Below are positions 3,774 to 32,312 of a stretch of 64,000 nt of DNA, piece by piece (within the stretch, counting starts at the first letter, position 1; each line of letters begins with the position of its first letter). Made by a program: the position numbers and the translations under genes. The DNA is from Candidatus Latescibacterota bacterium. GTDB taxonomy: Bacteria > Latescibacterota > UBA2968 > UBA8231. The notes under the pieces are model-generated. The model was given only the letters and a program-made list of their open reading frames with translations, was not told the DNA's origin and made no database searches. The stretch covers positions 992,001-1,056,000 of the forward strand of contig OZ244561.1 in assembly GCA_965217585.1 (NCBI GenBank). Direction: 5' to 3'.

Positions 3774-5357
3774 ATGCTAATCGGCTACGTCAGCGACGAA
3801 CGCTACATTGCCCTGCACGACGTGCAGTTCGAACTCGCCAACGAAAACCTGCACGTCGAAACCCGCTCGCGGGCCACCGGCGAGGTCTTCGCCGACATTC
3901 CCCCCGGTCCCTACACCGTGACCTTGCAAAAAGACGGTTTCGGCCCCAAGCGCGGGCAAATCAACATCCACCCCGACCGGCCGCACCACTTCCGCTTGCT
4001 CGCGCATCAGTTGCTCGGCTACGCCTGGCCCAAGTGGGTCCAAGCGGGCGAGCAATCCGAGTTCCGCGTCCACGCGCTCGAAGCCTACCGCCTCGATTTG
4101 TGGCGCTATGGCTGGGAAAAAGAACACATCCGCCCGCTGGGCTGGTTCGACGAGCACGGGCCGCGCGCCACCATGCAGATCACCCCGGACGACGACTACA
4201 CGCAAACCGGGATAATGTGGAACAAGTTTGGTTACACTAGCCCCACCCACAAACAGTTCGTCACCGCGCCGGAACGCTCTGGCCTCTACTACTTCCACGC
4301 CAAAGGCGAGTCCGGCGCGTTCTTCTCCTTTCCCTGGATCGTCGCCCCAGCCGCCCCCAGCGCGGACATTGCGGTCCTCGCCGCCAACATCAACTGGAAC
4401 GCGTACAACAATTTTGGCGGGCGCTCCAACTACATCCACCCCGACTGCTTCCCGCCCACGCCGACGATCAATGCCCGCCTAGAACTGAAGCGCTATACCG
4501 ACCCCGAACACATCAACTTCGACGCCGAGGACTACGCTCCCCTCTCCTTCGACCGGCCCGAGCCGATCAACCACGTTCCCGAGGACGCCGAGATCACCGA
4601 TCCCATCGCGGGACGCTCCGCCTCTCACGTGGCCCCGGCCGAGTGGCGCTTCCTCGGCTGGCTAGAGCGCGAGGGCTATGCCTACGACCTGTACGCCGAG
4701 ACCCAATTTCACTTTGGCCAGCTCGACCTCGACCAGTACAAAGTCCTCATCATCACCACCCATCCCGAGTACTGGTCGCGCAAGATGTACTACGAGCTCA
4801 AGGCGTGGGTGCGCGAGCGCGGTGGCAAACTCATGTACTTGGGAGGCAACGGCCTCAACTGCGAAGTGGAGCTACTCGACGAGCAGACGATGAAGGTCAA
4901 AAACGGCGATATGCGCGTCCAGCGGGCCGAGGGCTACGAGAGCCGCTTTCACCAGTACAACGAGTCCGAGGCCAACCTGCTCGGCGTGGTCTGTACCCTT
5001 GCGGGCATTATGACGTCCGCGCCGTATCAAGTCCTCGCCGCCGACCACTGGATTTTCGCCAACACGGGCGTCAAAAACGGCGATGCCTTCGGCGCGGCTA
5101 GCCTGCACGAGCGGGTACCCGGCGGTGCCTCCGGCCACGAGACCGACAAGACCTCGCCCTTTTCGCCCCCCGGCACCGAAATCGTCGCCCGCGGCCTCAA
5201 CCCGGACCGCGGCGGCGCGGAAATCGTCCACTACGAGACGGCCAGCGGCGGCGCAGTTTTTTCCGTCGGATCCATCACCTATCCAGCCTCGATTCTCGTG
5301 GACGAGGTCGTCTCGCGCATTACCGCGAACGTCATCGAGCGCTTTGTCGCGGCATAG
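3774..5357 (+). CDS. N,N-dimethylformamidase beta-subunit-like protein with N-terminal carboxypeptidase-regulatory-like domain
   Basis: WNAYNNFGGRSNY, LSFDRP, HPEYWS, LGGNG and GGAVFSVGSI motifs typical of the DMF-amidase beta family. Confidence 0.75.
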   Translation: MLIGYVSDERYIALHDVQFELANENLHVETRSRATGEVFADIPPGPYTVTLQKDGFGPKRGQINIHPDRPHHFRLLAHQLLGYAWPKWVQAGEQSEFRVHALEAYRLDLWRYGWEKEHIRPLGWFDEHGPRATMQITPDDDYTQTGIMWNKFGYTSPTHKQFVTAPERSGLYYFHAKGESGAFFSFPWIVAPAAPSADIAVLAANINWNAYNNFGGRSNYIHPDCFPPTPTINARLELKRYTDPEHINFDAEDYAPLSFDRPEPINHVPEDAEITDPIAGRSASHVAPAEWRFLGWLEREGYAYDLYAETQFHFGQLDLDQYKVLIITTHPEYWSRKMYYELKAWVRERGGKLMYLGGNGLNCEVELLDEQTMKVKNGDMRVQRAEGYESRFHQYNESEANLLGVVCTLAGIMTSAPYQVLAADHWIFANTGVKNGDAFGAASLHERVPGGASGHETDKTSPFSPPGTEIVARGLNPDRGGAEIVHYETASGGAVFSVGSITYPASILVDEVVSRITANVIERFVAA

Positions 5358-5386
5358 CCAAGGCACCCATTCGGCCTTATCCTAAG
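5244..5386 (+). repeat. Left copy of ~143-bp direct repeat bounding island 1 (3' end of the DMF-amidase-like gene)
   Basis: Matches 15371-15514. Core 5280-5361 vs 15407-15488 differs at one base. Confidence 0.95.
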
Positions 5387-5419
5387 ATGTTTTAACCACC
5401 CGTAATGATTTAACCACCC

Positions 5420-5447
5420 GTAGGGGCGACCGGCCGGTCGCCCCTAC
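5420..5447. repeat. GTAG-type REP palindrome GTAGGGGCGACCGGCCGGTCGCCCCTAC
   Basis: Perfect 28-bp palindrome with identical copies at 12585-12612 and 62099-62126. Preceded by a duplicated TTTAACCACCCGTA (5391, 5409). Confidence 0.85.
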
Positions 5448-5462
5448 AGTACAGGAATCCCA

Positions 5463-7469
5463 ATGACGACCAGCAACGAGACGACAAACAACACCGACCT
5501 GAACTGGATCGCCAACTACATCTGGGGCATCGCCGACGATGTCCTGCGCGACCTATACGTGCGCGGCAAGTACCGCGACGTGATCCTGCCGATGACCGTG
5601 CTGCGCCGGCTCGACGCAGTGCTGGAGGACAGCAAGCAGGCGGTCCTCGACATGAAGACCACCCTCGACAACGCCGGCGTCATCGAGCAGGATGCGACCC
5701 TGCGGCAGATCGCAGGACAAGCCTTCTACAATACCTCCAAGTTCACCCTGCGCGACCTGCGCGCCCGCGCCAATCGCCAGCAGCTCGAAGCCGACTTCCG
5801 GGCTTGGCTCGACGGGTTCTCGCCCAACGTCCAGGACATCCTCGAAAACTTCGAGTTCCGCAACCAGGTCTCGCGGCTTTCCAGGGCCGACGCCTTGGGC
5901 ACACTGATTGAGAAGCTGACCTCGCCTGACATCAACCTGAGCCCAGCCCCAGTGCACTACGCCGACGGCACGGTCAGGCACCCCGGCCTCGACAACCACG
6001 GCATGGGCACGATCTTCGAGGAGTTGATCCGGCGCTTCAACGAGGAGAACAACGAAGAGGCGGGCGAACACTGGACCCCGCGCGACGCCGTGACCCTGAT
6101 GGCGAAGCTGGTCTTCCTGCCCGTCGCCGATCGGATCAAATCCGGCACCTACCTGATTTACGACGGGGCCTGCGGCACCGGCGGCATGTTGACCGTGGCC
6201 GAGGACGTGCTTCAGCAGTTCGCCGCCGAACGCGGCAAGGAAGTCTCCACCCACCTATTCGGCCAGGAGATCAATGCCGAGACCTACGCCATCTGCAAGG
6301 CCGACCTGCTGCTGAAGGGTGAAGGGGACGCCGCCGACAACATCGTGGGCGGCCCAGAGCACTCTACCCTAGCCAACGACGCCTTCCCGTCCCGCGAGTT
6401 CGACTTCATGCTCTCCAATCCGCCCTACGGCAAGAGTTGGAAGACCGATCTGGAGCGCATGGGCGGCAAGAGCGACATGCGCGACCCGCGCTTTGTGATC
6501 GAGCACGCCGGCGACCCCGAGTATTCCCTAGTCACCCGCTCCAGCGACGGCCAGATGCTCTTTCTCGCCAATAAGCTCTCCAAGATGAAGCAGGGCGGCA
6601 GCCGCATCGCCGAGGTGCACAACGGCAGCTCCCTGTTCACCGGCGACGCCGGGCAGGGCGAGAGCAATATCCGCCGCTGGATCATCGAGAACGACTGGCT
6701 GGAGGCGATCGTCGCCCTGCCGCTCAACATGTTCTACAACACCGGCATCGCCACCTACGTCTGGGTGCTCACCAACCGCAAGCCGGAGCATCGCCAAAGC
6801 AAGGTGCAGTTGATCAACGCCACCGAGTGGCACCGGCCGCTGCGCAAAAACTTGGGCAAGAAGAACTGCGAGCTCGGCGAGGCGGACATTGAGCGCATCT
6901 GCGACACCTTCCTCGCCTTCGAGGAGAGCGAGCAGAGCAAGATCTTCGACAATGCCGCCTTCGGCTACTGGAAGGTGACGGTCGAACGGCCGCTGCGGCT
7001 TGAAGGGGCCGACCCCGACCGCGCTTACAAGGCCGCCGAGATCAAGAAGCTGAGGGAAAGCTGCGAGCGCAGCGAAACCGCGCCCCCCATCATCAAGAAG
7101 ATCCACAAGCGAGGCACGGAGGCCGATCCGCTGCGCGGCCGGTTCGAGGCTACTGTCAACGGCAAGCCCGTCGTGGTGGAGTACGAACCGGACACCGACC
7201 TGCGCGACACCGAACAGATTCCCCTGCAAGAGGAAGGCGGCATCGAAGCGTTCCTGCAGCGGGAGGTCCTTCCCTATGCCTCTGACGCCTGGTACCAACC
7301 AGACAGCGTGAGAATCGGCTACGAGATCAGCTTTACCCGATATTTCTACAAGCCGCAGCCGATGCGAACGCTGGACGAGATTCGGGCCGACATTCTGGAG
7401 TTAGAGAAAGAAACGGAAGGGTTGCTGGGTGAAATACTGGGCGCAAGTCAACAGCCGATCTCCACATAG
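5463..7469 (+). CDS. hsdM: Type I restriction-modification methyltransferase subunit
   Basis: GEHWTPRD, YDGACGTGGML (SAM binding) and SNPPYG (N6-adenine MTase) motifs. Confidence 0.95.
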   Translation: MTTSNETTNNTDLNWIANYIWGIADDVLRDLYVRGKYRDVILPMTVLRRLDAVLEDSKQAVLDMKTTLDNAGVIEQDATLRQIAGQAFYNTSKFTLRDLRARANRQQLEADFRAWLDGFSPNVQDILENFEFRNQVSRLSRADALGTLIEKLTSPDINLSPAPVHYADGTVRHPGLDNHGMGTIFEELIRRFNEENNEEAGEHWTPRDAVTLMAKLVFLPVADRIKSGTYLIYDGACGTGGMLTVAEDVLQQFAAERGKEVSTHLFGQEINAETYAICKADLLLKGEGDAADNIVGGPEHSTLANDAFPSREFDFMLSNPPYGKSWKTDLERMGGKSDMRDPRFVIEHAGDPEYSLVTRSSDGQMLFLANKLSKMKQGGSRIAEVHNGSSLFTGDAGQGESNIRRWIIENDWLEAIVALPLNMFYNTGIATYVWVLTNRKPEHRQSKVQLINATEWHRPLRKNLGKKNCELGEADIERICDTFLAFEESEQSKIFDNAAFGYWKVTVERPLRLEGADPDRAYKAAEIKKLRESCERSETAPPIIKKIHKRGTEADPLRGRFEATVNGKPVVVEYEPDTDLRDTEQIPLQEEGGIEAFLQREVLPYASDAWYQPDSVRIGYEISFTRYFYKPQPMRTLDEIRADILELEKETEGLLGEILGASQQPIST

Positions 7470-7580
7470 CGCAGGGGCAAAGAGAGCAACCGATACCACT
7501 ACCACAGGAGCGAGCGATGTCCTCTTTGAAGTCAGCGAGGACGAAGTGGAGCATCTGACATACACCAAACTCAGGAGGGA

Positions 7581-7922
7581 ATGGAAATGACAACGGAAAC
7601 CCTGAATCAACACATTGAGATCACCCCGGGCATATCAAGTGGCAAACCCCGCATTGCCGGTCATCGAATCACTGTGGAGAATATCGTCATCTGGCACGAG
7701 CGCCTAGGCAAGAGTGCCGACGAAATCGCCAGCGATTACGATATAACCCTTGCGGATGTGTATGCGGCATTGGCTTACTATTTCGATCACCGGCATGAGA
7801 TTGACCAATCGCTCGAAGAGAGTCGAGCATTTGTAAATATCTTACGTCAAAAATTCTCTTCGAAGCTTCCTCAAAAGATGCAAAAGTGGAATACCTATAG
7901 AGTACAAGGAAGTCATGGCTAA
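7581..7922 (+). CDS. DUF433 family protein (putative antitoxin)
   Basis: IEITPGISSGKPRIAGHRITV...ADVYAALAYY signature. Confidence 0.88.
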   Translation: MEMTTETLNQHIEITPGISSGKPRIAGHRITVENIVIWHERLGKSADEIASDYDITLADVYAALAYYFDHRHEIDQSLEESRAFVNILRQKFSSKLPQKMQKWNTYRVQGSHG

Positions 7923-8160
7923 TTCAGACCCATTGGTTGCCGATCCCAGCACTGAGATCATCTTTGAAGTCAGCGAGGACGAGGTAGATGGGGGTTACAC
8001 GGCAAGTGCGCTTGGATATGGCATCCATACGCAGGGAGAAGACTGGAACGACCTGAAGGCCATGGTGCGAGATGCGGTGCTTTGCCATTTCGACGACACC
8101 ATGCCGCGGCCCAAGTTGATTCGCCTTCACTTCGTGCGCGATGAGGTTCTCTTGGTATGA
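7915..8160 (+). CDS. HicB-like antitoxin family small protein
   Basis: EIIFEVSEDEVDGGYTASALGYGIHTQGEDWNDLKAMVRDAVLCHF, a HicB-like fold pattern. Confidence 0.75.
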   Translation: MANSDPLVADPSTEIIFEVSEDEVDGGYTASALGYGIHTQGEDWNDLKAMVRDAVLCHFDDTMPRPKLIRLHFVRDEVLLV

Positions 8161-9632
8161 AGTTACCCAACGTCGGCGAATTGAGGCCGTATTCGGAAAT
8201 GAAGGACTCCGGGGTAGAGTGGCTGGGTAAAGTTCCGTCGCATTGGAAGGTTATACCTAACCGCACCCTCTTTGAGGAGGTGAAGGAACGCGATCATCCA
8301 GAAGAACCGATGCTATCCGTAACGATCAAACAGGGTATCATTCGCCAGAAGGATCTTCTGGAAGACAACTCAAAGAAAGACGGTTCGAACCTAGACAAGT
8401 CGGCCTACAAACTGGTCCGGCTCGGAGACATTGCATATAACAAAATGCGAGCATGGCAGGGTGCCGTTGGAGCTTCTGAATACCAAGGTATTGTCAGTCC
8501 TGCCTACGTGGTGGAGCGTCCACGAAAAGGAGTTAGCTCGCACTACTTCCATTACTTACTTCGGACTCCTGCTTTCGCCAAAGAGGCCGAACGCTGGTCA
8601 TACGGCATTACATCGGATATGTGGAGTCTACGGCCTGAACACTTCAAGATGATCTATGCGTGCCTTCCCCCACCCACCGAACAAACCGCCATCGTCCGCT
8701 TCCTCGACCACGCCGACCGGCGCATCCAGCGCTACATCCGCGCCAAGCAGAAGCTGATTACGCTGCTGGAGGAGCAGAAGCAGGCCATCATCCATCAAGC
8801 CGTCACGGGCCAGATCGACGTCCGAACCGGCCAACCCTACCCGTCATACAAGGACTCCGGTGTGGAGTGGTTGGGTGATGTGCCGGAGGATTGGGAAGTC
8901 GTTCCATTGCGGAGAGTAACCCTTGACAGTTGCGATGGGCCGTTTGGTTCTGGATTGAAGTCGTCACATTACACTGAAGAAGGAATAAGAGTGGTGCGAC
9001 TTCAGAACATTGGACATGGAGAATTCAAAGACTCCGATGCCGCCTTTATTTCGCCCAAATATTATTCATCGCTGGGCGATCATTCCGTCATTTCGGGAGA
9101 TGTCCTAATAGCTGGGTTGGGCGACAACAACCATCCCGCGGGTCGAGCATGTGTCGCACCAGAGAATATCATCCCTGCTATGGTTAAGGCTGATTGTTTC
9201 AGGTTCCGCCTTAATCAAACTCGAATCCAACCACGGTTTGCCGCACTCCAACTAACCGCTACCGCGCCTGTTACTTCAGCCCTACTATCGACTGGGGCTA
9301 CCCGTCAACGAACTAATCTCCAAGCAACCTCTGGAAGAGCTATTGGTATTCCTTCGGTTCCTGAACAAAATTTGATCGTTAAGTACATCACAGCCGAGGT
9401 GTCAGGTATAGAGGATGCCCAAGTGGCCGTCCAGCGGGAGATTGATCTGCTCCGTGAACACCGCACCCGCCTAATCGCCGATGTCGTCACCGGCAAGCTC
9501 GATGTGCGCGAGGCGGCGGCTGAACTGCCGGAAGTGGATTCGCTTGCGGAAGACGACTTGGACGGTACAATCCATGATGGGGAGAATTCAAATCTCGGCG
9601 AACTCGAAGTCGCCGAGGAGGTGACCGTATGA
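8157..9632 (+). CDS. hsdS: Type I R-M specificity subunit (two TRDs)
   Basis: Two KDSGVEWLGxVP repeats, PPPTEQTAIVRFLD central region and LIADVVTGKLDVR C-terminus. The TRDs appear less GC-rich than the flanks. Confidence 0.95.
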   Translation: MKLPNVGELRPYSEMKDSGVEWLGKVPSHWKVIPNRTLFEEVKERDHPEEPMLSVTIKQGIIRQKDLLEDNSKKDGSNLDKSAYKLVRLGDIAYNKMRAWQGAVGASEYQGIVSPAYVVERPRKGVSSHYFHYLLRTPAFAKEAERWSYGITSDMWSLRPEHFKMIYACLPPPTEQTAIVRFLDHADRRIQRYIRAKQKLITLLEEQKQAIIHQAVTGQIDVRTGQPYPSYKDSGVEWLGDVPEDWEVVPLRRVTLDSCDGPFGSGLKSSHYTEEGIRVVRLQNIGHGEFKDSDAAFISPKYYSSLGDHSVISGDVLIAGLGDNNHPAGRACVAPENIIPAMVKADCFRFRLNQTRIQPRFAALQLTATAPVTSALLSTGATRQRTNLQATSGRAIGIPSVPEQNLIVKYITAEVSGIEDAQVAVQREIDLLREHRTRLIADVVTGKLDVREAAAELPEVDSLAEDDLDGTIHDGENSNLGELEVAEEVTV

Positions 9633-9715
9633 CGGACTGGAGCACCTGCCCAGCAGTGGAACGAAACCCCAAGAAGATCAGCGGAGCTTGGGCCTCTAGG
9701 AAAGTCCCGATCTGA
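9629..9715 (+). pseudogene. Truncated DUF433 gene start (MTDWSTCPAVERNPKKISGAW...)
   Basis: Homologous to the N-termini of 10129-10377 and 11699-11944. Stops after 28 codons. Confidence 0.8.
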
Positions 9716-9731
9716 ATACGGAAGAGATAGC

Positions 9732-9854
9732 GTGACCACCACCGACACCTCTGAACGCGGCCCCAAACGCCTCATCTGCACGGCGCAGGTTCAAGTGCTC
9801 AAACAAGCCGGCTTGAAAGAGAACTACACGGAGGGTGGAGATGGCACAGACTGA
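9732..9854 (+). pseudogene. Chimeric mini-ORF: HsdR N-terminus fused to a HicA-like C-terminus
   Basis: VTTTDTSERGPKRLICTA (copy of the hsdR start at 12336) continues in frame into QVQVLKQAGLK..., which resembles a HicA C-terminus, just upstream of hicB. Confidence 0.7.
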
Positions 9855-10062
9855 GTATCTGATCATTGTAGAGAAATACGGCCCCGGAGCGTATGGAGCC
9901 TATGTACCGGAGCTTCCGGGCATCGGGGTTGCCGGGGAGACCGAGGATGAGGTGCATGACCTAGTCGCCGACGCGATCAGGCTGTATCTCGATGAGCTTG
10001 AGCGGGATGGTGATCTGGCGGCGGATTCGGTTGTGGTGAACCACTACACAGTTACGATTTGA
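9841..10062 (+). CDS. HicB family antitoxin
   Basis: YLIIVEK...YGAYVPELPGIGVAGETEDEVHDLVADAIRLYL. Confidence 0.88.
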   Translation: MAQTEYLIIVEKYGPGAYGAYVPELPGIGVAGETEDEVHDLVADAIRLYLDELERDGDLAADSVVVNHYTVTI

Positions 10063-10128
10063 TCATAGGTGCCTAGCGGACGCCGAGAAATCGGCAGCAG
10101 AGTACACAATCGCAAAGGAGGTGACCGT

Positions 10129-10377
10129 ATGACAGACTGGAGCAAGTGCCCGGCGGTGGAAAGCGTGCCCGGCCGGGTCAGCGGGGCCTGGGTTTTCACG
10201 GGCACCCGGCTGCCCGTGTCGGCCCTTTTCGGCAACTTGGCGGAGGGCGCGACTGTCCACGACTTTATCGAGTGGTTCGGCGGGGTGGACGAAGCACAGG
10301 TGCGGGCTGTATTGGAATTCGTAGTGCAAGACCTTGACGCCAAGGTTGCCAAGGTCCCGCATGCGAATCCTGTTTGA
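10129..10377 (+). CDS. DUF433 family protein
   Basis: VESVPGRVSGAWVFTGTRLPVSALFGNL motif, AAGGAGG SD. Confidence 0.88.
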   Translation: MTDWSKCPAVESVPGRVSGAWVFTGTRLPVSALFGNLAEGATVHDFIEWFGGVDEAQVRAVLEFVVQDLDAKVAKVPHANPV

Positions 10378-10537
10378 CCACAACGCGCCTCGGCAGCTTC
10401 GCCGTCACCTCGTCGGTCATGACGTTGACGCGGCAGGAGAGCGAGGGTGGGCTGGGCTTGGCAATGGCGCGTTGCTGGATCGGGCCGAGGAAGCAGGGTA
10501 TGAAGCGGAACACCTCAAAGCTCCTGTGCAACCGTAA
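10361..10537 (+). pseudogene. Truncated DUF5615-type PIN-like toxin fused to a foreign tail
   Basis: MRILFDHNAPRQLRRHL...NGALLDRAEEAGYE breaks off before the ITTD motif seen in 11928-12302. A further start remnant (KILFDQGTPAPP*) follows at ~10538-10576. Confidence 0.75.
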
Positions 10538-10637
10538 AAATTCTGTTTGACCAAGGCACGCCCGCGCCGCCGTAGGCATTGCCCATCGGCCAATGAACAT
10601 CTATATTGTGCTACACAGAAACTGTGAGGCTGCGACT

Positions 10638-10976
10638 ATGAAAAACATCACCGTATCCATTGACGAACAGACCCACCGGCTCGCCCGCATCCGGGCGGCG
10701 GAGTTGGACACCTCGGTATCGGCCCTCGTGCGAGACTACCTGAAGAGTCTGGTTGCGGACCGCGCCGGCGGCACAGCCGACAACGGGCCGGTCGCGGAGC
10801 CAGAGGCCGAGCGTCGGCGTAGGATGTTGAGCGAGGTCATTGAGAAAATCCGCACCACTTCGCCCGGATTCAGGGCCGCCGACAACCTGCCTCGCGAAGA
10901 ACTGTACGACCGAGCCAGAGCCAGAGCCGAAGCTCAGGCAGCGGCCGCCGAAGACGAAGACCGCAAGCGCGGGTAA
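10638..10976 (+). CDS. Ribbon-helix-helix antitoxin (VapB-like)
   Basis: MKNITVSIDEQTHRLARIRAAELDTSVSALVRDYL and LPREELYDR motif, directly upstream of a PIN gene. Confidence 0.8.
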   Translation: MKNITVSIDEQTHRLARIRAAELDTSVSALVRDYLKSLVADRAGGTADNGPVAEPEAERRRRMLSEVIEKIRTTSPGFRAADNLPREELYDRARARAEAQAAAAEDEDRKRG

Positions 10977-10981
10977 GTGCC

Positions 10982-11395
10982 GTGCGCTTTGTCGATACGA
11001 ACGTCCTGATATACGCGGCCAGCCCCGCTCCTGATGAAGCCGACAAGCAGCGTTCGGCCCAGCGGCTGCTGGAAGAGGGAGACCTTGCGTTGTCCGTCCA
11101 AGTGCTCCAAGAGTTCTATCACCAAGCAACCCGTTCCAACCGCCTTGGAGCGATCACTCAAGAAGATGCGCTGCAATTCATCGAGAGCATCAGGCACTTT
11201 CCGGTGCAAGACATCACTCTCGATGTGTTCCATGCCGCCACCGCCATCAGCCGACGCTTTCGGCTGTCTTATTGGGACGGCGCAATCCTTGCCGCAGCGC
11301 GGACCCTCGGCTGCGACGCGGTCTATTCTGAGGACCTCAGTTCGGAACAGGACTACGATGGCCTCCGGGCCATAAATCCGTTCACGTACCAGTAG
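10982..11395 (+). CDS. PIN-domain (VapC-like) toxin
   Basis: FVDTNVLIYA, QVLQEF, SYWDGAILAAA and YSEDL acidic residues of PIN. Confidence 0.92.
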   Translation: MRFVDTNVLIYAASPAPDEADKQRSAQRLLEEGDLALSVQVLQEFYHQATRSNRLGAITQEDALQFIESIRHFPVQDITLDVFHAATAISRRFRLSYWDGAILAAARTLGCDAVYSEDLSSEQDYDGLRAINPFTYQ

Positions 11396-11403
11396 TCTTC
11401 ACA

Positions 11404-24531: not shown

Positions 24532-26334
24532 CTAAGGTTCCTCGGCGAGGTCTTCTCGTAACTCTGTATCTTCGTCGGGATCAAAGATGGTTGCCCGCCA
24601 AAACTCCGGTGGCAATGGAGACCGATGTTTGATACATGCAAGAATCAAAGCTGCTTGGGGGACTTCAAAGACTTCCTTTGATGGAAATTTCTTTCTACAT
24701 TGCCCTACGAAATTTCTAATTTTTTTGGCCAAAGACCGCTCATCGTTTGGGTCAGAGCTAAAATTAGCAGTCGGAATTGCGGCCCCGTCGACGACCTTTT
24801 TATGGAAAATTCGCTTGTCCCAATCATCAGGAGGTGCCCACCCAAGCAGGGCGATTGGATTTTCGTCAATCCCTTTCACGATCCGTGTGAAATATCTTTC
24901 TAGCAATTCATCTCTCTGACTTTCCTTGAGTGAAAAGCACAATTCCAATACCATAAGCAGGAGATATGAACTTCCATCAACAAATTCTGTGGGACGCTTA
25001 GAAGTAGCTACAAATTCAGCTACTAAGTCCATTCTACTGCGGGCCTCAATGAATGGAACTCCACTGATTCTCGCTCTTCGTGTGAGGAGACGGTTTTCCA
25101 GAGATCCTAACCAATTATATATCTCGTCTTGGCAACCTGACTGCCAAAGAATCCGCCACATCAGAAATAATTCAACATGATGAATGTCTAACAATGGCCT
25201 CAATGCACTAGGATTACTTTGGAGACACCGAATGAGCCATTTGGCATTCCGGCACAAAACTTTTCTATTCTGTTGCTCTTGATCATCTATAAATGTGCAG
25301 TTCAATATCCCCAGTCGACCGAGGTGCCAGTAGGCTATGTAAGCATCTAGGATCGCTCCCAACCGACCGCTGGGGTTTCCTCTTCCAGTCAGTCCATGTT
25401 CTGTAGTCAAAGCATCTTGTATTTCGGTAAAGTACTGTTCTAATTCTTCCACATAAAACTTGATCCAGACATCAGATACTATGAGCCTTAAATTTTCCGT
25501 TTGTAAATCGCAATATACATTCCACAAAGCCAATACCGCCCATTCAATTAGATCAATCCATCCCGGATAGCTGTTGGGCGTATTCTTCCTGTATTCGTTG
25601 ACAATCATTAGAGAAACGGGTACGAGTCGCAGTTTCCGCTCATCTATCGGACACTCTAACACCTTGCCAAGGAAATACTTCCATTGGGGAACTAATTGAT
25701 TTTCCCATTCTATAGAACCAAAATCAAAGTCGCCAACCTGCAAACAAATATACTGTAACGCGCTCGATAAATGTTGTGGTATAAGATCGGGCGTTAGGAG
25801 TTTACCTTTTACCTCCTCCGTCAATTTAGTAAGATTCCATCTTTCAAAGGTCAACTCAATGCCATCGCCCCGAGTGTTGCCGAGAGAGTTGGTAGTTTGT
25901 TCAAAGAGTTGAATTCCCGTTCCATCTTCATCTTTGTTGTATGCGAGGATGATGCTGACCTTCTCTATTGAATCTAATCCCATTCTCTGCAAATCTACAG
26001 TGGATGCCATTCGCAGATCTGAGTCAAAATTATGCTGGCTCCAATTTCTATTAGTCAGTGCTTCATCTTTGAGTACAAAAATGACGAGTTCTTCACTTTT
26101 TTCGCGCAGAAAAGCGAAGTCAATGCCAAATTCTGCCTCACTTTTCGTCTTTGGTATTTTGGGAGGCGGAGACCTAAAAAACGGTAGCCGTACCGGCGTC
26201 CAGTTTTTCGCAACAGCTAGGTTATAGATCACCCAATCAAAACCTATTTTGAGTCCATCCTTTTCTTTTCTCGTTCTTTCTAATAAACTCGTCAGATAAT
26301 TGCTCAAAAAAGTAGTACTATCATAGCATGGCAT
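24532..26334 (-). CDS. Hypothetical protein with N-terminal PD-(D/E)XK-like nuclease motif
   Basis: AT-rich relative to the backbone. E-FGID-x(~13)-FVLK pattern. Start placed just after the upstream stop. Confidence 0.6.
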   Translation of the reverse strand: MPCYDSTTFLSNYLTSLLERTRKEKDGLKIGFDWVIYNLAVAKNWTPVRLPFFRSPPPKIPKTKSEAEFGIDFAFLREKSEELVIFVLKDEALTNRNWSQHNFDSDLRMASTVDLQRMGLDSIEKVSIILAYNKDEDGTGIQLFEQTTNSLGNTRGDGIELTFERWNLTKLTEEVKGKLLTPDLIPQHLSSALQYICLQVGDFDFGSIEWENQLVPQWKYFLGKVLECPIDERKLRLVPVSLMIVNEYRKNTPNSYPGWIDLIEWAVLALWNVYCDLQTENLRLIVSDVWIKFYVEELEQYFTEIQDALTTEHGLTGRGNPSGRLGAILDAYIAYWHLGRLGILNCTFIDDQEQQNRKVLCRNAKWLIRCLQSNPSALRPLLDIHHVELFLMWRILWQSGCQDEIYNWLGSLENRLLTRRARISGVPFIEARSRMDLVAEFVATSKRPTEFVDGSSYLLLMVLELCFSLKESQRDELLERYFTRIVKGIDENPIALLGWAPPDDWDKRIFHKKVVDGAAIPTANFSSDPNDERSLAKKIRNFVGQCRKKFPSKEVFEVPQAALILACIKHRSPLPPEFWRATIFDPDEDTELREDLAEEP

Positions 26335-26335
26335 G

Positions 26336-28273
26336 TTATATCCCCTCATCTTGCAAACGCCGTATCTTCTGTTCGGCCTTAAATCTCCGCAGTGCCATAC
26401 TTTCGGGCTGAAGCCTCTCAAGGCGCGGCATTTCTACTTGAAAGGAAAGCTCTTCCAGAGACATAGATTCGCCTATCTCCCCCGGTTCTCCTTGCGACAG
26501 GGTGAACAAATTTCCATAAATTAAATCTACTGTCGGAAAAATCTGTGACACTAGTGATTGGTCACGAGTCTCTAAAAAACGTTGCGAAAGATCCCGACGT
26601 GCCTTCTCAGTGGCTTCCATATACTCTGGAAATTGGAAACTATTCGCAGAAGAGTTTTGAAATTTCTTCTGTTTTTCAAAATAGCTTTCTGCTTTTACAA
26701 TGACTCGTTTAAGTAGATCCGATGGTTTTTCTATTTTTTTCCATTCCTTCAAACAGGCACCTGGATAATTTGTTGCCTGTAAAACCATCTCATTTTCAAA
26801 TTCATCCCGTAGTTCGTTATCAGATGCGTTTCGGACTAAAGACTCCATCATAAGCAAGAGACGTGCAGTTTTCTTACCATCGGCGAACGGCATTCTGATA
26901 GATTCCCAAAGTGCCAAGCGTAATTCCATATCCGAGACCCGCTTTACCTTCATCACTGTATCGGATAAAGTTTCAATCTCGATCTTATGTAGGAGAATAT
27001 TTCCTAGTTTTCTGATAGTGTCACTTCTGGAAAAAATGCAACCTGCTATCAACTGCGGTACACCAACTCTGTTCATTTCTGAAATTAAGTATTCAAGTTT
27101 ATGATTTATAAACAGTTCGATCAAAGTCTCTGGATTTTTATCGGCAATTTGTTTTAGAAGTTTACCAAAACTATCTGTATCTTCGCGCAGTCGGTGAACT
27201 AGATAACACTCCACTCTTTCCCATATCTTAATATACTCTTTTTCAATTGGCTGAATAGAAAGGATGAGTTTATTTGCATCAGCCGTATCTATCAGCGCTC
27301 TGTTTCTTCCTTGATAATCCCGTAATTTATATACTGTATCCGTGATACTGTATTTTGCATCTGGTGACAATTCGGATGATGCATGTTTATTAAGCCATTG
27401 AAAAACAAAATGGGCGAATTCTTCTTCTATTCGTCTCGAAGAACAACGTCGTACAACATCAAAGGCTTCATTCTGTTCTTCTATCGTACCTTCTATAGCT
27501 TTATCAAGTACTATACTCAACTTATTTATGGAGATCCCACCTCTTCTGAAGGAAGTTCCCCATGACCGATAATAGCATCGACGTAATTCTTTCTTTTGGC
27601 TTGTATCCACATCCCATTTGTTTACTGTTTCTTCAAGGACCTTTTCTTTTACAGACGCAGCTTTTGCACGTACTGCTCCTAAGATAATAGCCGCAAGATG
27701 CAATCTCACATCATCGAGTTCATCTTTGATATATTGATCGAATACTATCAAACCGGCAGATGGAAAATTGAAAGCATAATTTTCAACTCCCCAAAAAAAA
27801 TCACCGCCTGCTAAATTTCCTTTCACAGCATCTCCAATTTTCAAAAACCAACTAGAAGCAAGCACTGTGGGGACTTCCACATTCGACAAAAACGTCGGTA
27901 ATGAACAAACGTAATCCCAAAATTGAGATGCTTCTTTATCAACCCATACGTTTAAAAAAATTTCTCTGCTGGATGACGGTATCTGTTGGTACGATTCGCT
28001 CCATAATATGCCTATCAATCGATTTCTTAGTTCCTCAGACTCCAGACAGGGAGGAATTTTTGAAAGAGTTTCGTAGAACTCATAATCAGCCGTAATTCCT
28101 TGGGGAAAGAGGATATTCAATAACTCGGCGACTTGCTCTTTATTTTCTTCAAGGTAACGGATTTCTTCTTTAATCTGGCCCTCCCGATTTAACAAACTTG
28201 CCCTGATCTCATTCTCATCAACCAATCGAGAAATAGATTGACACATCTTCGATATGTTCGCCAATTTTTCCAT
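26336..28273 (-). CDS. Large alpha-helical hypothetical protein
   Basis: 645-aa AT-rich ORF with a purine-rich SD-like region, coupled to the downstream ORF. Confidence 0.8.
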   Translation of the reverse strand: MEKLANISKMCQSISRLVDENEIRASLLNREGQIKEEIRYLEENKEQVAELLNILFPQGITADYEFYETLSKIPPCLESEELRNRLIGILWSESYQQIPSSSREIFLNVWVDKEASQFWDYVCSLPTFLSNVEVPTVLASSWFLKIGDAVKGNLAGGDFFWGVENYAFNFPSAGLIVFDQYIKDELDDVRLHLAAIILGAVRAKAASVKEKVLEETVNKWDVDTSQKKELRRCYYRSWGTSFRRGGISINKLSIVLDKAIEGTIEEQNEAFDVVRRCSSRRIEEEFAHFVFQWLNKHASSELSPDAKYSITDTVYKLRDYQGRNRALIDTADANKLILSIQPIEKEYIKIWERVECYLVHRLREDTDSFGKLLKQIADKNPETLIELFINHKLEYLISEMNRVGVPQLIAGCIFSRSDTIRKLGNILLHKIEIETLSDTVMKVKRVSDMELRLALWESIRMPFADGKKTARLLLMMESLVRNASDNELRDEFENEMVLQATNYPGACLKEWKKIEKPSDLLKRVIVKAESYFEKQKKFQNSSANSFQFPEYMEATEKARRDLSQRFLETRDQSLVSQIFPTVDLIYGNLFTLSQGEPGEIGESMSLEELSFQVEMPRLERLQPESMALRRFKAEQKIRRLQDEGI

Positions 28274-28317: not shown

Positions 28318-29578
28318 CAGGGCAATCGCACCAAAAATTGAGATTTGTCATAGGGTTATGTTATATTTTCTGTGTCTTTTTCGATAGCGCTGGTGCGCTG
28401 CTTCTCTCCCCTTCTCTTGGAACGTTTCCCCATGGCACCTTCGGCTGATTCACTGATTGAACATTTTTCCCAGGTACCCGATCCCCGTATCGAGCGCAGC
28501 CAAAGGCATCGTCTCATCGATATTGTGGTCATTGCCGTGTGTGGCGCGATCTGCGGGGCCGACAACTGGGTGCATATCGCTGAGTTTGGGCGATCCAAAT
28601 ACGACTGGCTAAAAACCTTTCTGGCGTTGCCCAATGGCATTCCTTCCCATGACACCTTCGGCCGCGTCTTCGCCCGGATCTCGCCCGAGCATTTCCAGGA
28701 CTGTTTCAGTGCTTGGGTCCAATCCCTCCTCCCCAAGCTTGAGGAAGAGATTGTGCCTATTGATGGCAAAACGTTGCGCCACTCTTATGACCGAACCTCG
28801 GGTAAAGCAGCCGTACATATGGTCAATGCCTGGGCGGTGAAAAACCGACTGGTGTTAGGCCAGTTCCACTGTGAAGGCGGTCTGGACGAGATCACCCTCA
28901 TTCCCGAACTGCTGCGTGTGCTGGCGCTCAAAGGCTGCATCGTCACCGTCGATGCCATCGGCTGCCACAAAAGCGTGGCCGAACAGGTCATCGACCGGCA
29001 AGGCGACTACGTACTGGCCGTCAAGGCTAATCAGCCCAAGCTGTTGCATCATCTGCGTCAGGTCTTCGACCGAGGGGAGCCTCAACTGCATCAGGATCTA
29101 TCGGTCGACATGTTTGAGACCTACGATGAAAACCACGGCCGCATTGAGACCCGCCGGTACTGGACCACCGATCAGGTCGACGCTTTTGCCGATGGGACCG
29201 CTTGGAAGGGCTTAGGCTTGTTCGGTATGGTTGAAGCCCAGCGACAGGTAGGCGATCAAGTCTCCGTGGAACGACGCTACTATATCTCCAGCCTGGACAA
29301 CGATGCCCAGCGGTTTGGTGAAGCGGTGCGTAGTCATTGGAGCATTGAAAATTCCTTGCACTGGATACTGGATGTGGTCTTCCGTGAAGATGACTCACGG
29401 GTACGCACCGGCCATGCCCCGGAAAATATGGCCCTCCTGCGACAGATTGCCGTGAGTCTGCTCCAGCAAGAGAAGACGGCCAAGGTCGGCGTCCAGACCA
29501 AACGGCTCAAGGCCGGATGGGATAACACCTATTTGGCTAAAGTATTGTCCGCTGGGCACTTTTGATGCGATTGCCCTG
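28318..29578 (+). mobile_element. Complete ISAs1-family insertion sequence (1261 bp)
   Basis: IRs CAGGGCAATCGCACCAAAA / CAGGGCAATCGCATCAAAA (18/19). 10-bp target duplication CTTTCCCACC at 28308-28317 and 29579-29588. Confidence 0.96.
28431..29565 (+). CDS. ISAs1 family transposase
   Basis: PDPR, GIPSHDTFGRVF, IDGKTLR, TVDAIGC, VKANQ, HWSIENSLHWILDVVFREDD. Start codon uncertain. Confidence 0.94.
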
Positions 29579-29998
29579 CTTTCCCACCATTTCCGTGAAA
29601 TCTATATTCGGCAATCTTCTAATCTCTGCCTCGGCTCGCATCAAGAGCCTTTTGGCATTCCTAGGGCTTTCATAGTATCCTACCCAGCGACCAGTGGGTT
29701 CAAGCACATAATCTGCTTGGCGACGTGCTTCATAAAGCTCATCGAGAGTCCTTGCCAAATTGTTTAAGTCAGGATTGTTTGATGAGTACAAAAAATTCTT
29801 TAATGCGCCATGGTCAATATGATCATCGCGGCCATGGATTGCCTTGCCTTCCCGTGTGCGTATTTCAGTTCTTATTGAAAGAAAAAGTGCATAATATGCT
29901 CTCCCGATGGCAGTTCTTGTACGGGCTTCTTTGTCGAGTTTTCCTTGTTTTGTTATTGAGTGCCCAACTTTGGCAAATAGTTTTGGATCAAAATTCAT
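29537..29998 (-). CDS. HEPN-domain protein; native C-terminus replaced by the ISAs1 insertion
   Basis: RTAIGRAYYALF, H, and LYEARRQADY motifs. Removing the IS restores ...TEMVGKI* with the stop at 28302-28304. Confidence 0.8.
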   Translation of the reverse strand: MNFDPKLFAKVGHSITKQGKLDKEARTRTAIGRAYYALFLSIRTEIRTREGKAIHGRDDHIDHGALKNFLYSSNNPDLNNLARTLDELYEARRQADYVLEPTGRWVGYYESPRNAKRLLMRAEAEIRRLPNIDFTEMVGKQGNRIKSAQRTIL

Positions 29999-30015
29999 AG
30001 TAATCTCAAACTCAA

Positions 30016-30579
30016 TCAATCAGAACCTGAAACAAAATGAAAATTAATCGCCTTAAAGGTCTCTTTATTTAATTTTTTAGCAATCAATGAGTAAAAATCA
30101 AAAGTCGTCTCAGCTATCATGTCGTCTTGTTTCTCTTCTTTCACGGTTACTATAATGAAATTTTCGTCATCAATATCTATCCCGACTTTCCAATTCAACT
30201 CGGAAGCGGCTGACTCAACAACAGAAAGCACATGACGCCATTCGATGTTTAAGTCAACTTCCTCTTCTCTGAATGACTCCGGTTTAAGTTCCCGAATAAT
30301 ATCCTGCAGTTCCCCATTCTCTTGCCTCAACGTTCCCACCTGATTTTGTAGTGCATTTAACTGAACCTGAAGATAGTTTATTCTTTCATGTGCCTGCCAA
30401 TCAGATATGTCCCTTCTCTCTTCGATCTGTTCAACTAGTGAACTGGAGAAAGCTGGCATACAATACGATTCCTGTAAAAGGAGACGCTTTCTATCAATCC
30501 CCTCTCGGCATAATCTTTGTGGCGTTGGCCGGGAATACCGAAAATCAATCTTCTCAGAGTCTTCAAAAATAGTATTCAT
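30016..30579 (-). CDS. Hypothetical coiled-coil protein, partner of the HEPN gene
   Basis: ATGA overlap with the Doc stop. Heptad region LQVQLNALQNQVGTLRQENGELQ. Confidence 0.65.
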   Translation of the reverse strand: MNTIFEDSEKIDFRYSRPTPQRLCREGIDRKRLLLQESYCMPAFSSSLVEQIEERRDISDWQAHERINYLQVQLNALQNQVGTLRQENGELQDIIRELKPESFREEEVDLNIEWRHVLSVVESAASELNWKVGIDIDDENFIIVTVKEEKQDDMIAETTFDFYSLIAKKLNKETFKAINFHFVSGSD

Positions 30580-30953
30580 GTAATATGCTCTTTCAACCAT
30601 CTGACAAATTGATCGCGAGAGACATCTCCTGATGCAACTCCCAAGATGATCTGCTCTTGAATATCTACGGTTGCATCAATCTCATATCCGTTTAGAATTA
30701 AGGACGCTTCCATTGCGGCGTGTCCCACCCGTTTATTTCCATCGATAAAGGGATGATTCTGGATCAAAGAAAAACACAAGGCTGCCGCCTTTTCCACGAC
30801 AGTGGGATAGAGATCTTGTCCGTCAAACGTCATACGAGGTTGCTCGACAGCCGATTCTAATCCGCTACGATTAAGCAACCCTATAGAGCCACCACTTGTC
30901 TCAATAATATGCTGATGAAGTACCAATACTTCATCCATGCTGATATAATACAT
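30576..30953 (-). CDS. Fic/Doc family (death-on-curing) toxin
   Basis: HPFIDGNKRVG motif and LESAVEQP...DLYPTVVEKAAAL. Confidence 0.93.
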   Translation of the reverse strand: MYYISMDEVLVLHQHIIETSGGSIGLLNRSGLESAVEQPRMTFDGQDLYPTVVEKAAALCFSLIQNHPFIDGNKRVGHAAMEASLILNGYEIDATVDIQEQIILGVASGDVSRDQFVRWLKEHIT

Positions 30954-32077
30954 CAACTTAGTCTTTGGTAAAGTTCTCTATTCTTCTCCAACACGTATTT
31001 AGCGAGCTGCTCAAATTTCTGATCTCGAAACACACCGTTGTGAAAAAAATCAATAAGGCCATCTTTCATCTGAGAATGCGATCCAAGTCCCCCAGAGCTG
31101 AAACTCAAATGATGCCCTATGACAATGCGTATGATCTCAGGAACTACGTTAGCAGCTATGTTAGCGGTGTATCTTTTGGCCTGCTCATTATCAAGTCCAT
31201 TTATCTTTGGTTGGCCTGTGTGAACTAGGCGATTTCGAACTCTGCCAACCAGTTTAACCTGAACCTTTTGCTTGGAGGTGGGAGGCGAATCTATAATATC
31301 AAGCGATTGGAGAAGCGAAAATAATTTATCTGTAAAGGCTGGTTCACCTTTAATCCAATTATCTAGCGAACGTCTATATCGTTCCGCTTGATCTGGCTGG
31401 AGATCCTCTGTTTGCTCAAAGCAATTGAGGACATTGCTTATTGCGTTTTTAAGTTTCTTACGGATATTCTTTCTAACTTTCTGATCGGTCGTTTTATGAT
31501 TGTCGAGAATTAGATTGTCGAGCTTATTAAGAATTATGTCGAGTGCCGTGTAGTACAAAACGGCGCGAGCTTGCAAGAGGTTAGCGTTCATTGCCTCATT
31601 GTATAAAACCAGAGCGATGTGCAAATTTCTCGATACCAAACTCTCCCTATTTTGCCAAGCAAGTGCTGCGGCTTCCAAGGTCTCAATTGGAATCGCTGCA
31701 TAGCTGTCACCATATATATCGGGTCTGTACCTGTCCTTGTACTCTGCTGTTACTACGCTTCTACCTGTAATAAAAGTGAGTAAATTGCATAGATCCCATA
31801 GCCCGTCATCGTCGCATTCCTCGTCAAGGAGAATGCTCTTTTCCACAGAATCTTTCCAAGACACAGTTGCGGTGGCTTGCCAAGTACCTTTATGTGGCGG
31901 CAAGCGTTTTGCCTCCTTCTCAGTGATGACCCATTTTGCAGGTTTGGCCAATTGAGCAACTTTAGCATCGTAATCATCTGTGAGACGCACCGTAAGGCCA
32001 CCAATTTCATGTCCTGACCATGGGGGGTCAGGGCGTGGTTCGTCTACATATAAATTGAAGAGGTCAACTGTTTTCAT
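30953..32077 (-). CDS. ApeA/HEPN-like protein with Doc-antitoxin-like C-terminal tail
   Basis: RNRLVH (RxxxxH) motif. Ends DQKFEQLAKYVLEKNRELYQRLS*, TGATG-coupled to doc. Confidence 0.65.
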   Translation of the reverse strand: MKTVDLFNLYVDEPRPDPPWSGHEIGGLTVRLTDDYDAKVAQLAKPAKWVITEKEAKRLPPHKGTWQATATVSWKDSVEKSILLDEECDDDGLWDLCNLLTFITGRSVVTAEYKDRYRPDIYGDSYAAIPIETLEAAALAWQNRESLVSRNLHIALVLYNEAMNANLLQARAVLYYTALDIILNKLDNLILDNHKTTDQKVRKNIRKKLKNAISNVLNCFEQTEDLQPDQAERYRRSLDNWIKGEPAFTDKLFSLLQSLDIIDSPPTSKQKVQVKLVGRVRNRLVHTGQPKINGLDNEQAKRYTANIAANVVPEIIRIVIGHHLSFSSGGLGSHSQMKDGLIDFFHNGVFRDQKFEQLAKYVLEKNRELYQRLS

Positions 32078-32252
32078 TGCTACTTCCTTCCACAGCGACA
32101 AGGGCAGACCGAAGTTCCTCGGCGAAGTCTTCGCGTAATTCCGCTCCTTCATCAGGGTCGCCCAGCATTTCTGAGAGCGTGTGTACAACAATCTCCTGAA
32201 CAAGTGCTCTAAACTCATCAACTGTTAAATCGGCGACTTTTTCAGAGGTCAT
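32064..32252 (-). CDS. Small antitoxin-like protein
   Basis: KVADLTVDEFRALV...DPDEGAELREDF pattern, AAGGAG SD, first gene after the cimA stop. Confidence 0.6.
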   Translation of the reverse strand: MTSEKVADLTVDEFRALVQEIVVHTLSEMLGDPDEGAELREDFAEELRSALVAVEGSSNENS

Positions 32253-32272
32253 TGTTTTGCTCCTTGATTTGC

Positions 32273-32312
32273 GCGCTCAATCCGTTCCCGTCGCGCCGAC
32301 AGCTAGCTCGGC
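32273..32312 (-). repeat. Proximal copy of the 40-bp repeat (actual cimA 3' end)
   Basis: 39/40 identical to 21760-21799. Confidence 0.95.

Follow-up and report, generated by a model that had tools for sequence, protein, structure and literature searches.

Two Defense Islands End With a Copy of the Preceding Gene's Tail

We analyzed a stretch of 64,000 nucleotides (nt) from Candidatus Latescibacterota bacterium (contig OZ244561.1, positions 992,001 to 1,056,000), referred to below as the window. It corresponds to G000:C1:992001-1056000 and lies inside a single contig of 7.3 Mb. The window carries two islands, island 1 between a gene for a DMFA2_C-family protein and queF, and island 2 between cimA and argJ, and each ends with a second copy of the 3' end of the gene that precedes it. 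Both are integrase-free islets of defense and toxin-antitoxin genes in hot spots behind conserved genes and, with a probability of about 0.55, would have been built by displacement of the resident 3' end. The flanking repeat is probably not a recombinase site.

The recombination pathway and the route of DNA entry are what we infer from sequence comparison. The incoming allele would consist of the same conserved gene with cargo behind it and would recombine homologously within or upstream of that gene, while the far end of the incoming DNA would join illegitimately inside the tail of the resident gene. The resident 3' end would then be pushed downstream and make up the flanking repeat, which is the geometry of homology-facilitated illegitimate recombination and of C-terminal displacement. 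With this geometry new cargo is stacked before old cargo and not substituted for it. The events that survive would be those keeping the upstream gene whole and the native leader of the downstream gene intact; as the ATG of argJ lies 5 nt past the cimA stop, junction-duplicating products are the ones seen. The later fate of the islands may include inheritance, exchange via the flanking homology, decay by deletion and gain of insertion sequence (IS) elements.

Island 1 follows a gene for a 527-aa DMFA2_C-family protein (3774..5357, plus strand; Pfam PF20254, E 9.3e-56), which an earlier note on this DNA had taken for queC. Its full-length orthologues in the same genus are 82-97% identical. Tail copy A (5244..5394, plus strand) comprises the last 114 nt of this anchor gene and 37 nt past the stop. 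Tail copy B (15371..15521, plus strand) begins at the hsdR stop and continues into the native leader of queF (15545..15904, plus strand; Pfam QueF, E 2.9e-32). The two copies form a direct repeat of 151 nt with 89% identity (5244-5394 / 15371-15521), spaced 10,127 bp from start to start; a repeat had been described here before, at 143 bp. Gapped blastn of the flanks (E 2.5e-53) placed copy A at -113 to +37 relative to the stop. Both copies have the same stop codon and share about 24-37 nt beyond it.

Island 2 is read from the minus strand. The anchor is a cimA/leuA-family synthase of 537 aa (32277..33890; Pfam HMGL-like, LeuA_dimer and HCS_D2), and cimA orthologues were found in 40 of 41 genomes. 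According to the alignment tail copy A (32273..32312, minus strand) is the functional cimA end and spans -35 to +4 relative to the stop. Tail copy B (21760..21799, minus strand) holds the last 33 coding nt of cimA, the stop and 4 nt, and lies 1 nt before the ATG of argJ (20565..21758, minus strand; Pfam ArgJ, E 4e-146). The copies are identical at 39 of 40 positions, in agreement with the 40-bp repeat of the earlier note, and are spaced 10,513 bp from start to start. When the window was shuffled 100 times with dinucleotides preserved, no shuffle contained two matches with at most 3 mismatches. A chance origin is not expected for either main repeat. The true ATG of argJ is at 21758-21756, and the 433-aa open reading frame (ORF) that extends to 21866 represents upstream read-through, as judged from the junction alignment.

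The islands had been proposed to encode no integrase. This was confirmed, as a family scan of the 35 window ORFs (Pfam, E <= 1e-3) found no tyrosine or serine recombinase family. The genome has five Phage_integrase matches, the nearest about 176 kb past the end of the window. Mobility genes were absent from island 1, and island 2 contains one IS transposase, which is missing from the homologous contigs of metagenome runs X5 and X7. The metagenome evidence used here consists of assembled contigs from four runs (X1, X5 and X7 among them), and assembly loses rare forms.

Island 1 Has the Same Boundaries in Relatives

For island 1 we compared the region 3' of the anchor orthologue in 20 genomes, 16 from the same genus and four from other genera that share the anchor gene alone. 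An uninterrupted arrangement of anchor gene, 60 nt and queF was found in G007, G019, G015 and G023. Repeat 1 aligns once to the uninterrupted site of relatives, and the sequence downstream of copy B matches that of G007 and G019; copy B does restore the native junction to queF, as had been claimed. The same type I operon occupies the same place in eight genomes (G001, G003, where the contig ends inside the operon, G004, G010, G011, G012, G021 and G022), and four others contain degraded remains of the island (G002, G009, G013 and G014).

The boundaries of copy B are identical at both ends in G000, G001, G011, G014, G021 and G022, with the start directly after the hsdR stop. Shortened or overwritten remnants of copy B are found in G004, G009, G010, G012 and G013. 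Because the duplication boundaries are the same in all relatives keeping the copy, the comparison fits one founding insertion of island 1, which would afterwards have been inherited or passed on with its flanks. The interior is variable. Of the small genes that separate hsdS from hsdR, relatives hold subsets in differing combinations, and extra entries comprise IS elements, a UvrD-like gene and ORFs of no known family.

In a tree built from both anchor genes adjoining the islands, which may mirror recombination instead of descent, the uninterrupted genomes G007 and G019 are nested among occupied ones. This suggests precise loss or exchange via flanking homology. When the 151-nt copies themselves were placed on a tree, copies B from G000, G001 and G011 clustered with the sites that are uninterrupted in G007 and G019 (support 80-94). 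We set this aside as evidence for a resident copy, since the queF leader, which is separately constrained, partly drives the grouping. A second, stacked island downstream of the tail copy in G022 was also considered and rejected; the region is rearranged.

The cimA-argJ Junction Is a Variable Hot Spot

The cimA-argJ junction was compared with that of 19 relatives, and the junction alignment comprised 17 genomes. Seven of the 19 (G001, G003, G009, G010, G011, G012 and G021) have the cimA stop, 5 nt and the argJ ATG, which is the arrangement found after copy B, so that the native argJ junction is indeed restored in the window. Cargo of 0.5 to about 24 kb is present in G004, G005, G007, G008, G014 and G019. 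Scars of about 0.2 kb, with the first ~45 codons of a 62-aa ORF beside the tail copy, were seen in G002, G013 and G020. A distant type with another cimA end, a spacer of 115-125 nt and an argJ that is 59-62% identical is found in G015, G016 and G023. Tail copies at argJ occur in nine genomes besides G000.

The breakpoints at this junction differ. In the left junction of the G000 type the full cimA tail is followed by about 20 conserved nt and then by cargo. G019 and G005 have a replacement of the cimA tail at -35, with the original one standing at argJ. In G008 copy A continues across the spacer and 13 nt into argJ, with a copy B of only about 20 nt. A contig of X5 fuses position 21746, 10 nt inside argJ, to the cargo at 30584. 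G007 has a 56-nt cimA fragment right behind a cassette of an ORF and a Fic gene, followed by 22 kb of G019-type cargo. From these alignments the cimA-argJ junction is a true variable hot spot that appears to have been struck several times at different bases, with at least three breakpoint pairs. On the two-gene tree the states of island 2 require at least six changes. We count the variable breakpoints in favor of displacement.

The earlier note had predicted variable cargo at both sites and had described two independent islands sharing one integron-like grammar. Variable cargo was found at cimA-argJ, whereas island 1 has fixed boundaries and varies in its interior. The common grammar was not supported, as the boundaries of island 1 are the same in relatives, no boundary sequence is shared and the breakpoints differ.

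Two further observations were made at this locus. The argJ genes of G015, G016 and G023 (L050, L051 and L052) are 59-62% identical to argJ of the window, and the neighboring cimA and aminotransferase genes are 84-88% identical, which suggests that argJ may have been replaced in one of the two groups. In G009 (L046) cimA is found in two frames, residues 1-313 and 317-537, and island 1 of this genome is a remnant.

Tail Copies Are Frequent and Polar in This Genome

The expectation that the pattern would recur genome-wide was examined with a direct-repeat screen (16-mer seeds with ungapped extension; direct repeats spaced 0.3-40 kb; genes taken as crude longest-ORF calls; full-paralogue pairs left out). 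It did recur. For 60 genes a copy of the 3' end was found downstream, and for 26 upstream (binomial p 3e-4, for loci that are not independent). For copies in the 60-150-nt class the numbers were 27 downstream and 7 upstream. The 60 genes with downstream tail copies collapse to 46 loci. The gene-tail-copy scar thus appears common in this genome, and we count its polarity in favor of displacement.

We annotated 20 of the 46 loci, with 184 ORFs, picked by eye mainly for cargo of low guanine-plus-cytosine (GC) content relative to the flanks or for longer repeats. Ten of the 20 carry clear defense or toxin-antitoxin cargo: HamA plus a helicase; GmrSD; a Dam-type methylase plus DUF7687; three dynamin-like GTPases; a methylase plus IS630-type ORFs behind Mrr; type III restriction plus TIR plus AAA; a 1675-aa AAA_22 protein; PIN/HicB; FitA/NERD/kinase/STAND; and a second type I operon. 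The latter (L073, G000:C1:5730000-5747000) has Piwi-domain, SIR2-like and AIPR genes embedded between hsdS and hsdR and is flanked by a 245-nt duplication of the neighbor gene's tail. Possible defense cargo was seen in two loci (L061 and L064) and unassigned or mixed cargo in two (L068 and L075), and the remaining six contain metabolic genes or tandem paralogues (L060, L067, L071, L072, L076 and L077). No integrase or resolvase family was among the matches at E <= 1e-5 for the 184 ORFs. Including the two islands, no recombinase was found in or beside 22 loci. At a locus with an Ldh_2 gene the duplication takes in the spacer as well as the tails of both flanking genes, and homology resumes past the stop.

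Repeat Boundaries and fdhD Point to Two Alleles

We inspected 16 repeats, which range in length from 40 to 333 nt across loci. By gapped alignment the right boundary lies within -2 to +6 nt of the anchor stop in 10 of the 16 and at +19 to +76 in the others. An ungapped extension had put the end exactly at the stop in 12 of the 16, and this was corrected to 10 by the gapped re-alignment. In four of the 16 repeats the two copies have different stop codons. Differing stop codons together with a boundary at the stop codon are compatible with two alleles and not with a literal copy. No common sequence was seen by eye at the boundaries of the 16 repeat pairs, and no attC-like element at these boundaries or at the cassette joints of cimA-argJ. 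Recombinase attachment (att) cores within the repeats, which the earlier note had named, together with a trans-acting integrase, as a refuting find, were likewise not seen among the 16 by eye. At the inspected joints, which are old and diverged, possible microhomology amounts to 0-7 nt. Selection alone was rejected as the reason for boundaries at the stop codon, as the duplicated coding tails of 92-333 nt are much longer than any leader that a downstream gene needs.

The fdhD locus carries the most direct indication of two alleles. In allele type 1 the stop is TAA and is followed by the native downstream gene; this type is found in G003, G006, G009, G012, G015, G016 and G017, distant genomes included. 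In allele type 2 the stop is TAG, and behind it come a conserved leader, about 80 nt long, and the gene for a FitA-like antitoxin, as seen in G001, G002, G007, G010, G014, G020 and G022, with a shortened form in G021. G000 contains both. Its copy A is of type 2 and is followed by 11.5 kb of cargo, while copy B is a 102-nt tail with the type 1 stop and downstream gene. The tail copy was found in G000 alone when 41 genomes were searched. This points to type 2 DNA that would have recombined in or before fdhD, with the far end joined illegitimately 102 nt inside the resident type 1 gene. The locus has the geometry expected of displacement, since copies A and B belong to different allele types, and the structure of cimA in G007 also fits this geometry. 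Scars of homology-facilitated illegitimate recombination or of Campbell integration had been suggested as candidates earlier; they provide the best fit. The fdhD copies match two coexisting alleles.

The FdhD protein match was also found to cross one or two in-frame TGA codons in G002, G014, G015, G016, G019, G020 and G021, and none in G000. These could be frameshifts, an edge effect of the alignment or recoding.

Alternative Explanations

Several observations weigh against displacement of the resident tail. Copies of gene 5' heads lie upstream in 43 cases and downstream in 51 and show no polarity. The screen itself used crude longest-ORF calls and loci that are not independent, and 20 of the 46 loci were chosen by eye. 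At fdhD the polymorphisms in the tail body are not linked to allele type, so the argument is carried by the stop codon and the downstream sequence alone. The outer repeat of island 1 would fit a literal target duplication equally well, because the stop and some 24-37 nt of following sequence are common to both copies and all relatives have the same boundaries. Donors with cargo already behind the anchor stop would be needed, and the first adjacency, often at 6 nt or less from the stop, is left unexplained. Natural transformation in this organism is hypothetical only. Matches to ComEC and DprA are present, but these were also found in 10 and 11, respectively, of 14 control genomes, E. coli included, so that they are weakly informative on the pathway. 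More generally, the whole case is one of comparison, with no recombination observed.

Among the alternatives, a literal insertion with long target duplication survives best, although we regard it as clearly less probable than displacement. A break whose staggered ends are long, or the repair of a break in the target, perhaps provoked by the restriction enzyme, would leave copies of 40-330 bp on both sides, and these would be identical at birth. Nobusato and colleagues reportedly described such an insertion of restriction-modification (RM) systems in 2000, and the model is that of Nobusato, Furuta and Kobayashi. The phenomenon is already known for RM systems as far as the consulted parts of one report go: an RM operon without mobility genes is flanked by repeats of 46-423 bp, some of which overlap the 3' end of a flanking gene, and type I systems are included (PMC2853133). 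The authors proposed that DNA breakage by the enzyme is involved (PMC2853133; Furuta, Abe & Kobayashi, 2010).

Island 1 has every feature by which these insertions are defined in those parts of the report, namely both restriction (R) and modification (M) genes (hsdM, hsdS and hsdR), an insert of less than 20 kb, a repeat of more than 30 bp and an uninterrupted relative (PMC2853133). Island 2, for which neither Pfam nor PADLOC found an R or M family, falls outside the definition. The literal duplication also agrees with the stop and the spacer of about 24-37 nt that the copies of island 1 share, with repeats extending 19-76 nt past the stop at three other loci, and with the Ldh_2 locus, where both tails and the spacer are duplicated. 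Compared with what these parts of the report describe, however, the same signature is found here around cargo without restriction genes (Hachiman-like, dynamin-like, STAND-type and toxin-antitoxin), is nested inside islands and usually ends at a stop codon. Ten of 16 repeats end there and four have differing stop codons, and a process blind to position should yield an excess of 5' heads, which was not seen. The fdhD copies were traced to two alleles that coexist and existed beforehand, which argues against both literal duplication and a role of restriction cleavage.

A second alternative, which we hold to be improbable, is a RecA-dependent Campbell cycle. Recombination between the two tails would excise a circle, and re-entry by a single crossover would duplicate the homologous segment, so that the repeats would serve as a host-powered attachment site. 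Repeats of 40-330 bp are long enough for homologous recombination, and the homology of the circle would end at the stop if the coding tail alone were conserved. Precise loss could explain why, on the two-gene tree, uninterrupted junctions are interspersed with occupied ones, but that tree comes from two genes adjoining the islands and may record recombination instead of descent. The joints listed for the assembled contigs of the four runs, which drop rare forms, included neither a tail-to-tail nor a circle joint, and the differing breakpoints at one hot spot would require several independent founding circles.

There is little to recommend a site-specific system acting in trans, be it a tyrosine or serine recombinase, Xer or a transposase associated with repetitive extragenic palindromes (REP), which would use cores in the repeats and generate integron-like or tycheposon-like arrays. 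The modularity of cimA-argJ is cassette-like, with conserved left and right ends, island 1 has a REP-like palindrome at its left edge in most relatives, and five tyrosine recombinase genes are found elsewhere in the genome. Against this, by eye no sequence is common to the 16 repeat pairs or their boundaries, repeat lengths vary between 40 and 333 nt, one and the same junction has differing breakpoints and none of the 22 loci has a recombinase in or beside it. REP palindromes were rejected as the insertion agent since the genome has no match to the Y1 transposase (PF01797) and none were seen at other island boundaries. Capture by non-homologous end joining was rejected as well, there being no Ku match in the genome.

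An assembly artefact, in which mixing of strains made false tail copies, is highly improbable: short-read contigs of X1 do break inside tail copy B of island 2 at 21770 with no bridging, but the genome is one 7.3-Mb contig, the duplication of island 1 has the same boundaries in at least five other genomes, tail copies at argJ occur in nine others, and the copies of island 1 differ at 11% of positions.

Relation to Known Systems

Displacement of a resident 3' end resembles the accretion described for effector-immunity arrays of type VI secretion systems (T6SS), where, in the portions of the source drawn on here, a homologous anchor and an illegitimate far joint push older parts downstream (Kirchberger et al., 2017, PMC5361080). 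The same accretion was hypothesized there for Rhs loci with strings of orphaned 3' regions (PMC5361080). Going by these portions, the islands share with Rhs, contact-dependent inhibition (CDI) and T6SS displacement a conserved upstream anchor, a new module in front, an old 3' part downstream and the lack of an integrase. They differ in that the anchors are ordinary housekeeping genes and not a toxin gene, and in that the displaced piece is a non-functional gene tail and the cargo consists of anti-phage defense and toxin-antitoxin genes. Kirchberger and colleagues cite Jackson et al. (2009) in this context.

As in integrons, co-oriented cassettes gather behind a fixed point with the newer ones nearer the anchor. 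Unlike integrons, there is no intI gene among the window ORFs and no attC-like element was seen at the inspected boundaries; breakpoints vary, and the cassettes are multi-gene, several with their own start signals. Nothing points to a dedicated integron-like apparatus. Integrase-borne islands that target tRNA or protein genes at the 3' end bring a replacement for that end and likewise have direct repeats equal to it; the gene is intact on the left, the displaced fragment lies on the right, and identity often ends where the gene does. In contrast to these, no integrase was found in the 22 loci, and there is no constant crossover point.

Many defense islands lie between core genes without integrase or transposase. 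To our knowledge, the route by which such integrase-free islands arrive is unsettled. The readable scars found here (the polarity of 60 against 26, the variable breakpoints and the fdhD alleles) bear on this question. The scar type is already known; what differs here is its anchoring on housekeeping genes, the diversity of the defense cargo and the frequency of polar scars in one genome. No paper describing this signature for defense cargo in general was found among the titles and the beginnings of abstracts searched. That a polar integrase-free pathway is the usual route by which defense systems enter and pile up in this lineage is a tentative proposal that we rather doubt. If it were true, the displaced tails would be datable scars recording the order and the donors of acquisitions, and gene-tail remnants could be used to reconstruct how defense hot spots free of mobile elements form in bacteria. 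If displacement holds, gene-tail remnants would provide a simple signature for detecting and ordering such events in any genome, and the mechanism could be tested in transformable model bacteria. The practical outcome is a corrected annotation of two defense islands and of the nested toxin-antitoxin cassettes.

Gene Content of Island 1

Island 1 consists of a type I restriction-modification operon in which toxin-antitoxin genes are nested, and its GC content is 0.54-0.64. All of its genes are on the plus strand. The operon consists of the methyltransferase gene hsdM (5463..7469; Pfam N6_Mtase and HsdM_N; PADLOC MTase_I, E 5e-237), the specificity subunit gene hsdS (8157..9632; PADLOC Specificity_I, E 3.7e-98) and the restriction subunit gene hsdR (12336..15371; Pfam HSDR_N, SWI2_SNF2, ResIII and T1R_D3-like; PADLOC REase_I). 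The listed ORF of hsdR begins with TTG at 12315, and the ATG at 12336 agrees with the repeat alignment. Between relatives hsdS is just 35-45% identical (tblastn).

A nested insertion (7520..8160) lies between hsdM and hsdS. It begins with a copy of the start region of the ORF at 7915-8160, continues with a DUF433 gene (7581-7922; Pfam DUF433) and ends with that 81-aa ORF intact. The start-region copy was first described as 22 bp and is a 31-nt repeat of 90% identity (7520-7550 / 7958-7988); the duplication pattern does repeat inside the islands. The HicB-like label given to the ORF was dropped, as no Pfam family matched it. In G004 this head fragment is followed by another insert.

A toxin-antitoxin array, delimited from repeats, alignments and Pfam, extends from hsdS to hsdR (9610..12335). 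It starts with two fragments recognized as repeats, a truncated DUF433 start (9610-9692) and a copy of the hsdR head (9736-9808). These are followed by a HicB-like gene (9835-10062), a DUF433 gene (10129-10377), a DUF6364 gene (10593-10976) and a PIN gene (10982-11395), all assigned by Pfam. A second hsdR-head copy (11405-11477) then directly abuts a copy of the hsdS tail (11480-11644), again seen as a repeat. Next come DUF433 (11699-11944) and DUF5615 (11928-12302) genes, also from Pfam, and a remnant of a PIN start at about 12309-12328, identified by repeat and alignment.

The earlier note had hsdS ends and hsdR starts in triplicate. The hsdR start is present three times (9736-9808, 11405-11477 and 12337-12409), whereas the hsdS end is present twice (9435-9602 and 11480-11644); what occurs three times is the junction of an hsdS end with a DUF433 start (9610-9692, 10110-10192 and 11680-11762). 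The joint between hsdR head and hsdS tail is sharp at 11477/11480, and G014 has the same order of fragments (tblastn). It may be the trace of an incoming fragment that began in hsdS and was anchored in hsdR. Displacement anchored on hsdR or on the small cassette genes could in this way have built the nested toxin-antitoxin arrays.

Gene Content of Island 2

The GC content of island 2 is 0.38-0.51, compared to 0.58-0.62 in the flanks. Both islands had been described as co-oriented with their flanking genes, and this applies to all island genes except the transposase of island 2; the features below are on the minus strand unless stated otherwise. Starting at argJ, the conserved right end (21800..21850) is an ORF of some 28 codons that has a ribosome-binding-like sequence of its own, enters tail copy B and stops there. 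From a reading by eye of this short ORF, the right end is homologous in G000, G004, G005, G007, G008, G014 and G019. It is followed by a cassette of a 155-aa and a 168-aa gene (21901..22852) without family match, which is the sole cargo at the cimA-argJ junction in G004. The 155-aa gene opens with a cimA-like fragment (cimA aa 329-373, at ~22699-22827, 65% identical) that is kept in the G004 cassette, and a piece of the anchor gene thus seems to have been built into this cargo gene.

A repeat-rich ORF of 484 aa (23006..24460) had no family match. Then follows an Olokun-like pair (24532..28273), made up of an OloB-like protein of 629 aa (24532-26421; PADLOC OloB, E 5.8e-28) and an OloA-like protein of 645 aa (26336-28273; PADLOC OloA, E 2.8e-12), with a GC content of 0.38-0.43. 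The adjacent OloA and OloB homologues are the gene set that defines Olokun, so that the pair is a putative system of this type. A 59-nt fragment of the 62-aa ORF is located at 24524-24582. The IS transposase (28372..29565, plus strand; Pfam DDE_Tnp_1_assoc and DDE_Tnp_1) is a secondary insertion; contigs of X5 and X7 cover 25738-28309 and resume at 29579-29581 without it. Two small ORFs of 194 and 160 aa (29537..30600) had no Pfam match, and the 160-aa ORF has a weak PADLOC match to HEPN_IX (E 4e-5).

The left cassette (30576..32252) contains the 62-aa ORF (32064-32252) and an ORF of about 374 aa (30953-32077), both read from the translation, and a Fic/Doc protein (30576-30956; Pfam Fic, E 9e-20). 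The ~374-aa ORF and Fic are the sole cargo at the junction in G008, and in G007 more cargo lies behind them.

Palindromes and Other Features of the Window

Island 1 has at its left edge a REP-like perfect palindrome of 28 nt with GTAG...CTAC ends (5420..5447). A second copy at 12585-12612 lies within the hsdR reading frame, and another is found at about 62099. The genome has 27 exact copies, or 39 when up to 2 mismatches are allowed. In the variants of relatives the outer 8 nt are the same and the inner stems differ. In G013 the hsdR remnant stops exactly at the palindrome and is fused to the palindrome beside queF, which looks like a deletion between two palindrome copies.

Upstream of the studied region, at 944-1816 on the minus strand, the window carries an IS1595-family transposase (DDE_Tnp_IS1595 plus zinc ribbon) in a low-GC stretch. 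Downstream of queF a DUF5343-family gene (15935-16867) contains four to five tandem 36-nt units at 16427-16626, which encode a proline/glutamate-rich repeat, and the length of this gene differs among relatives.

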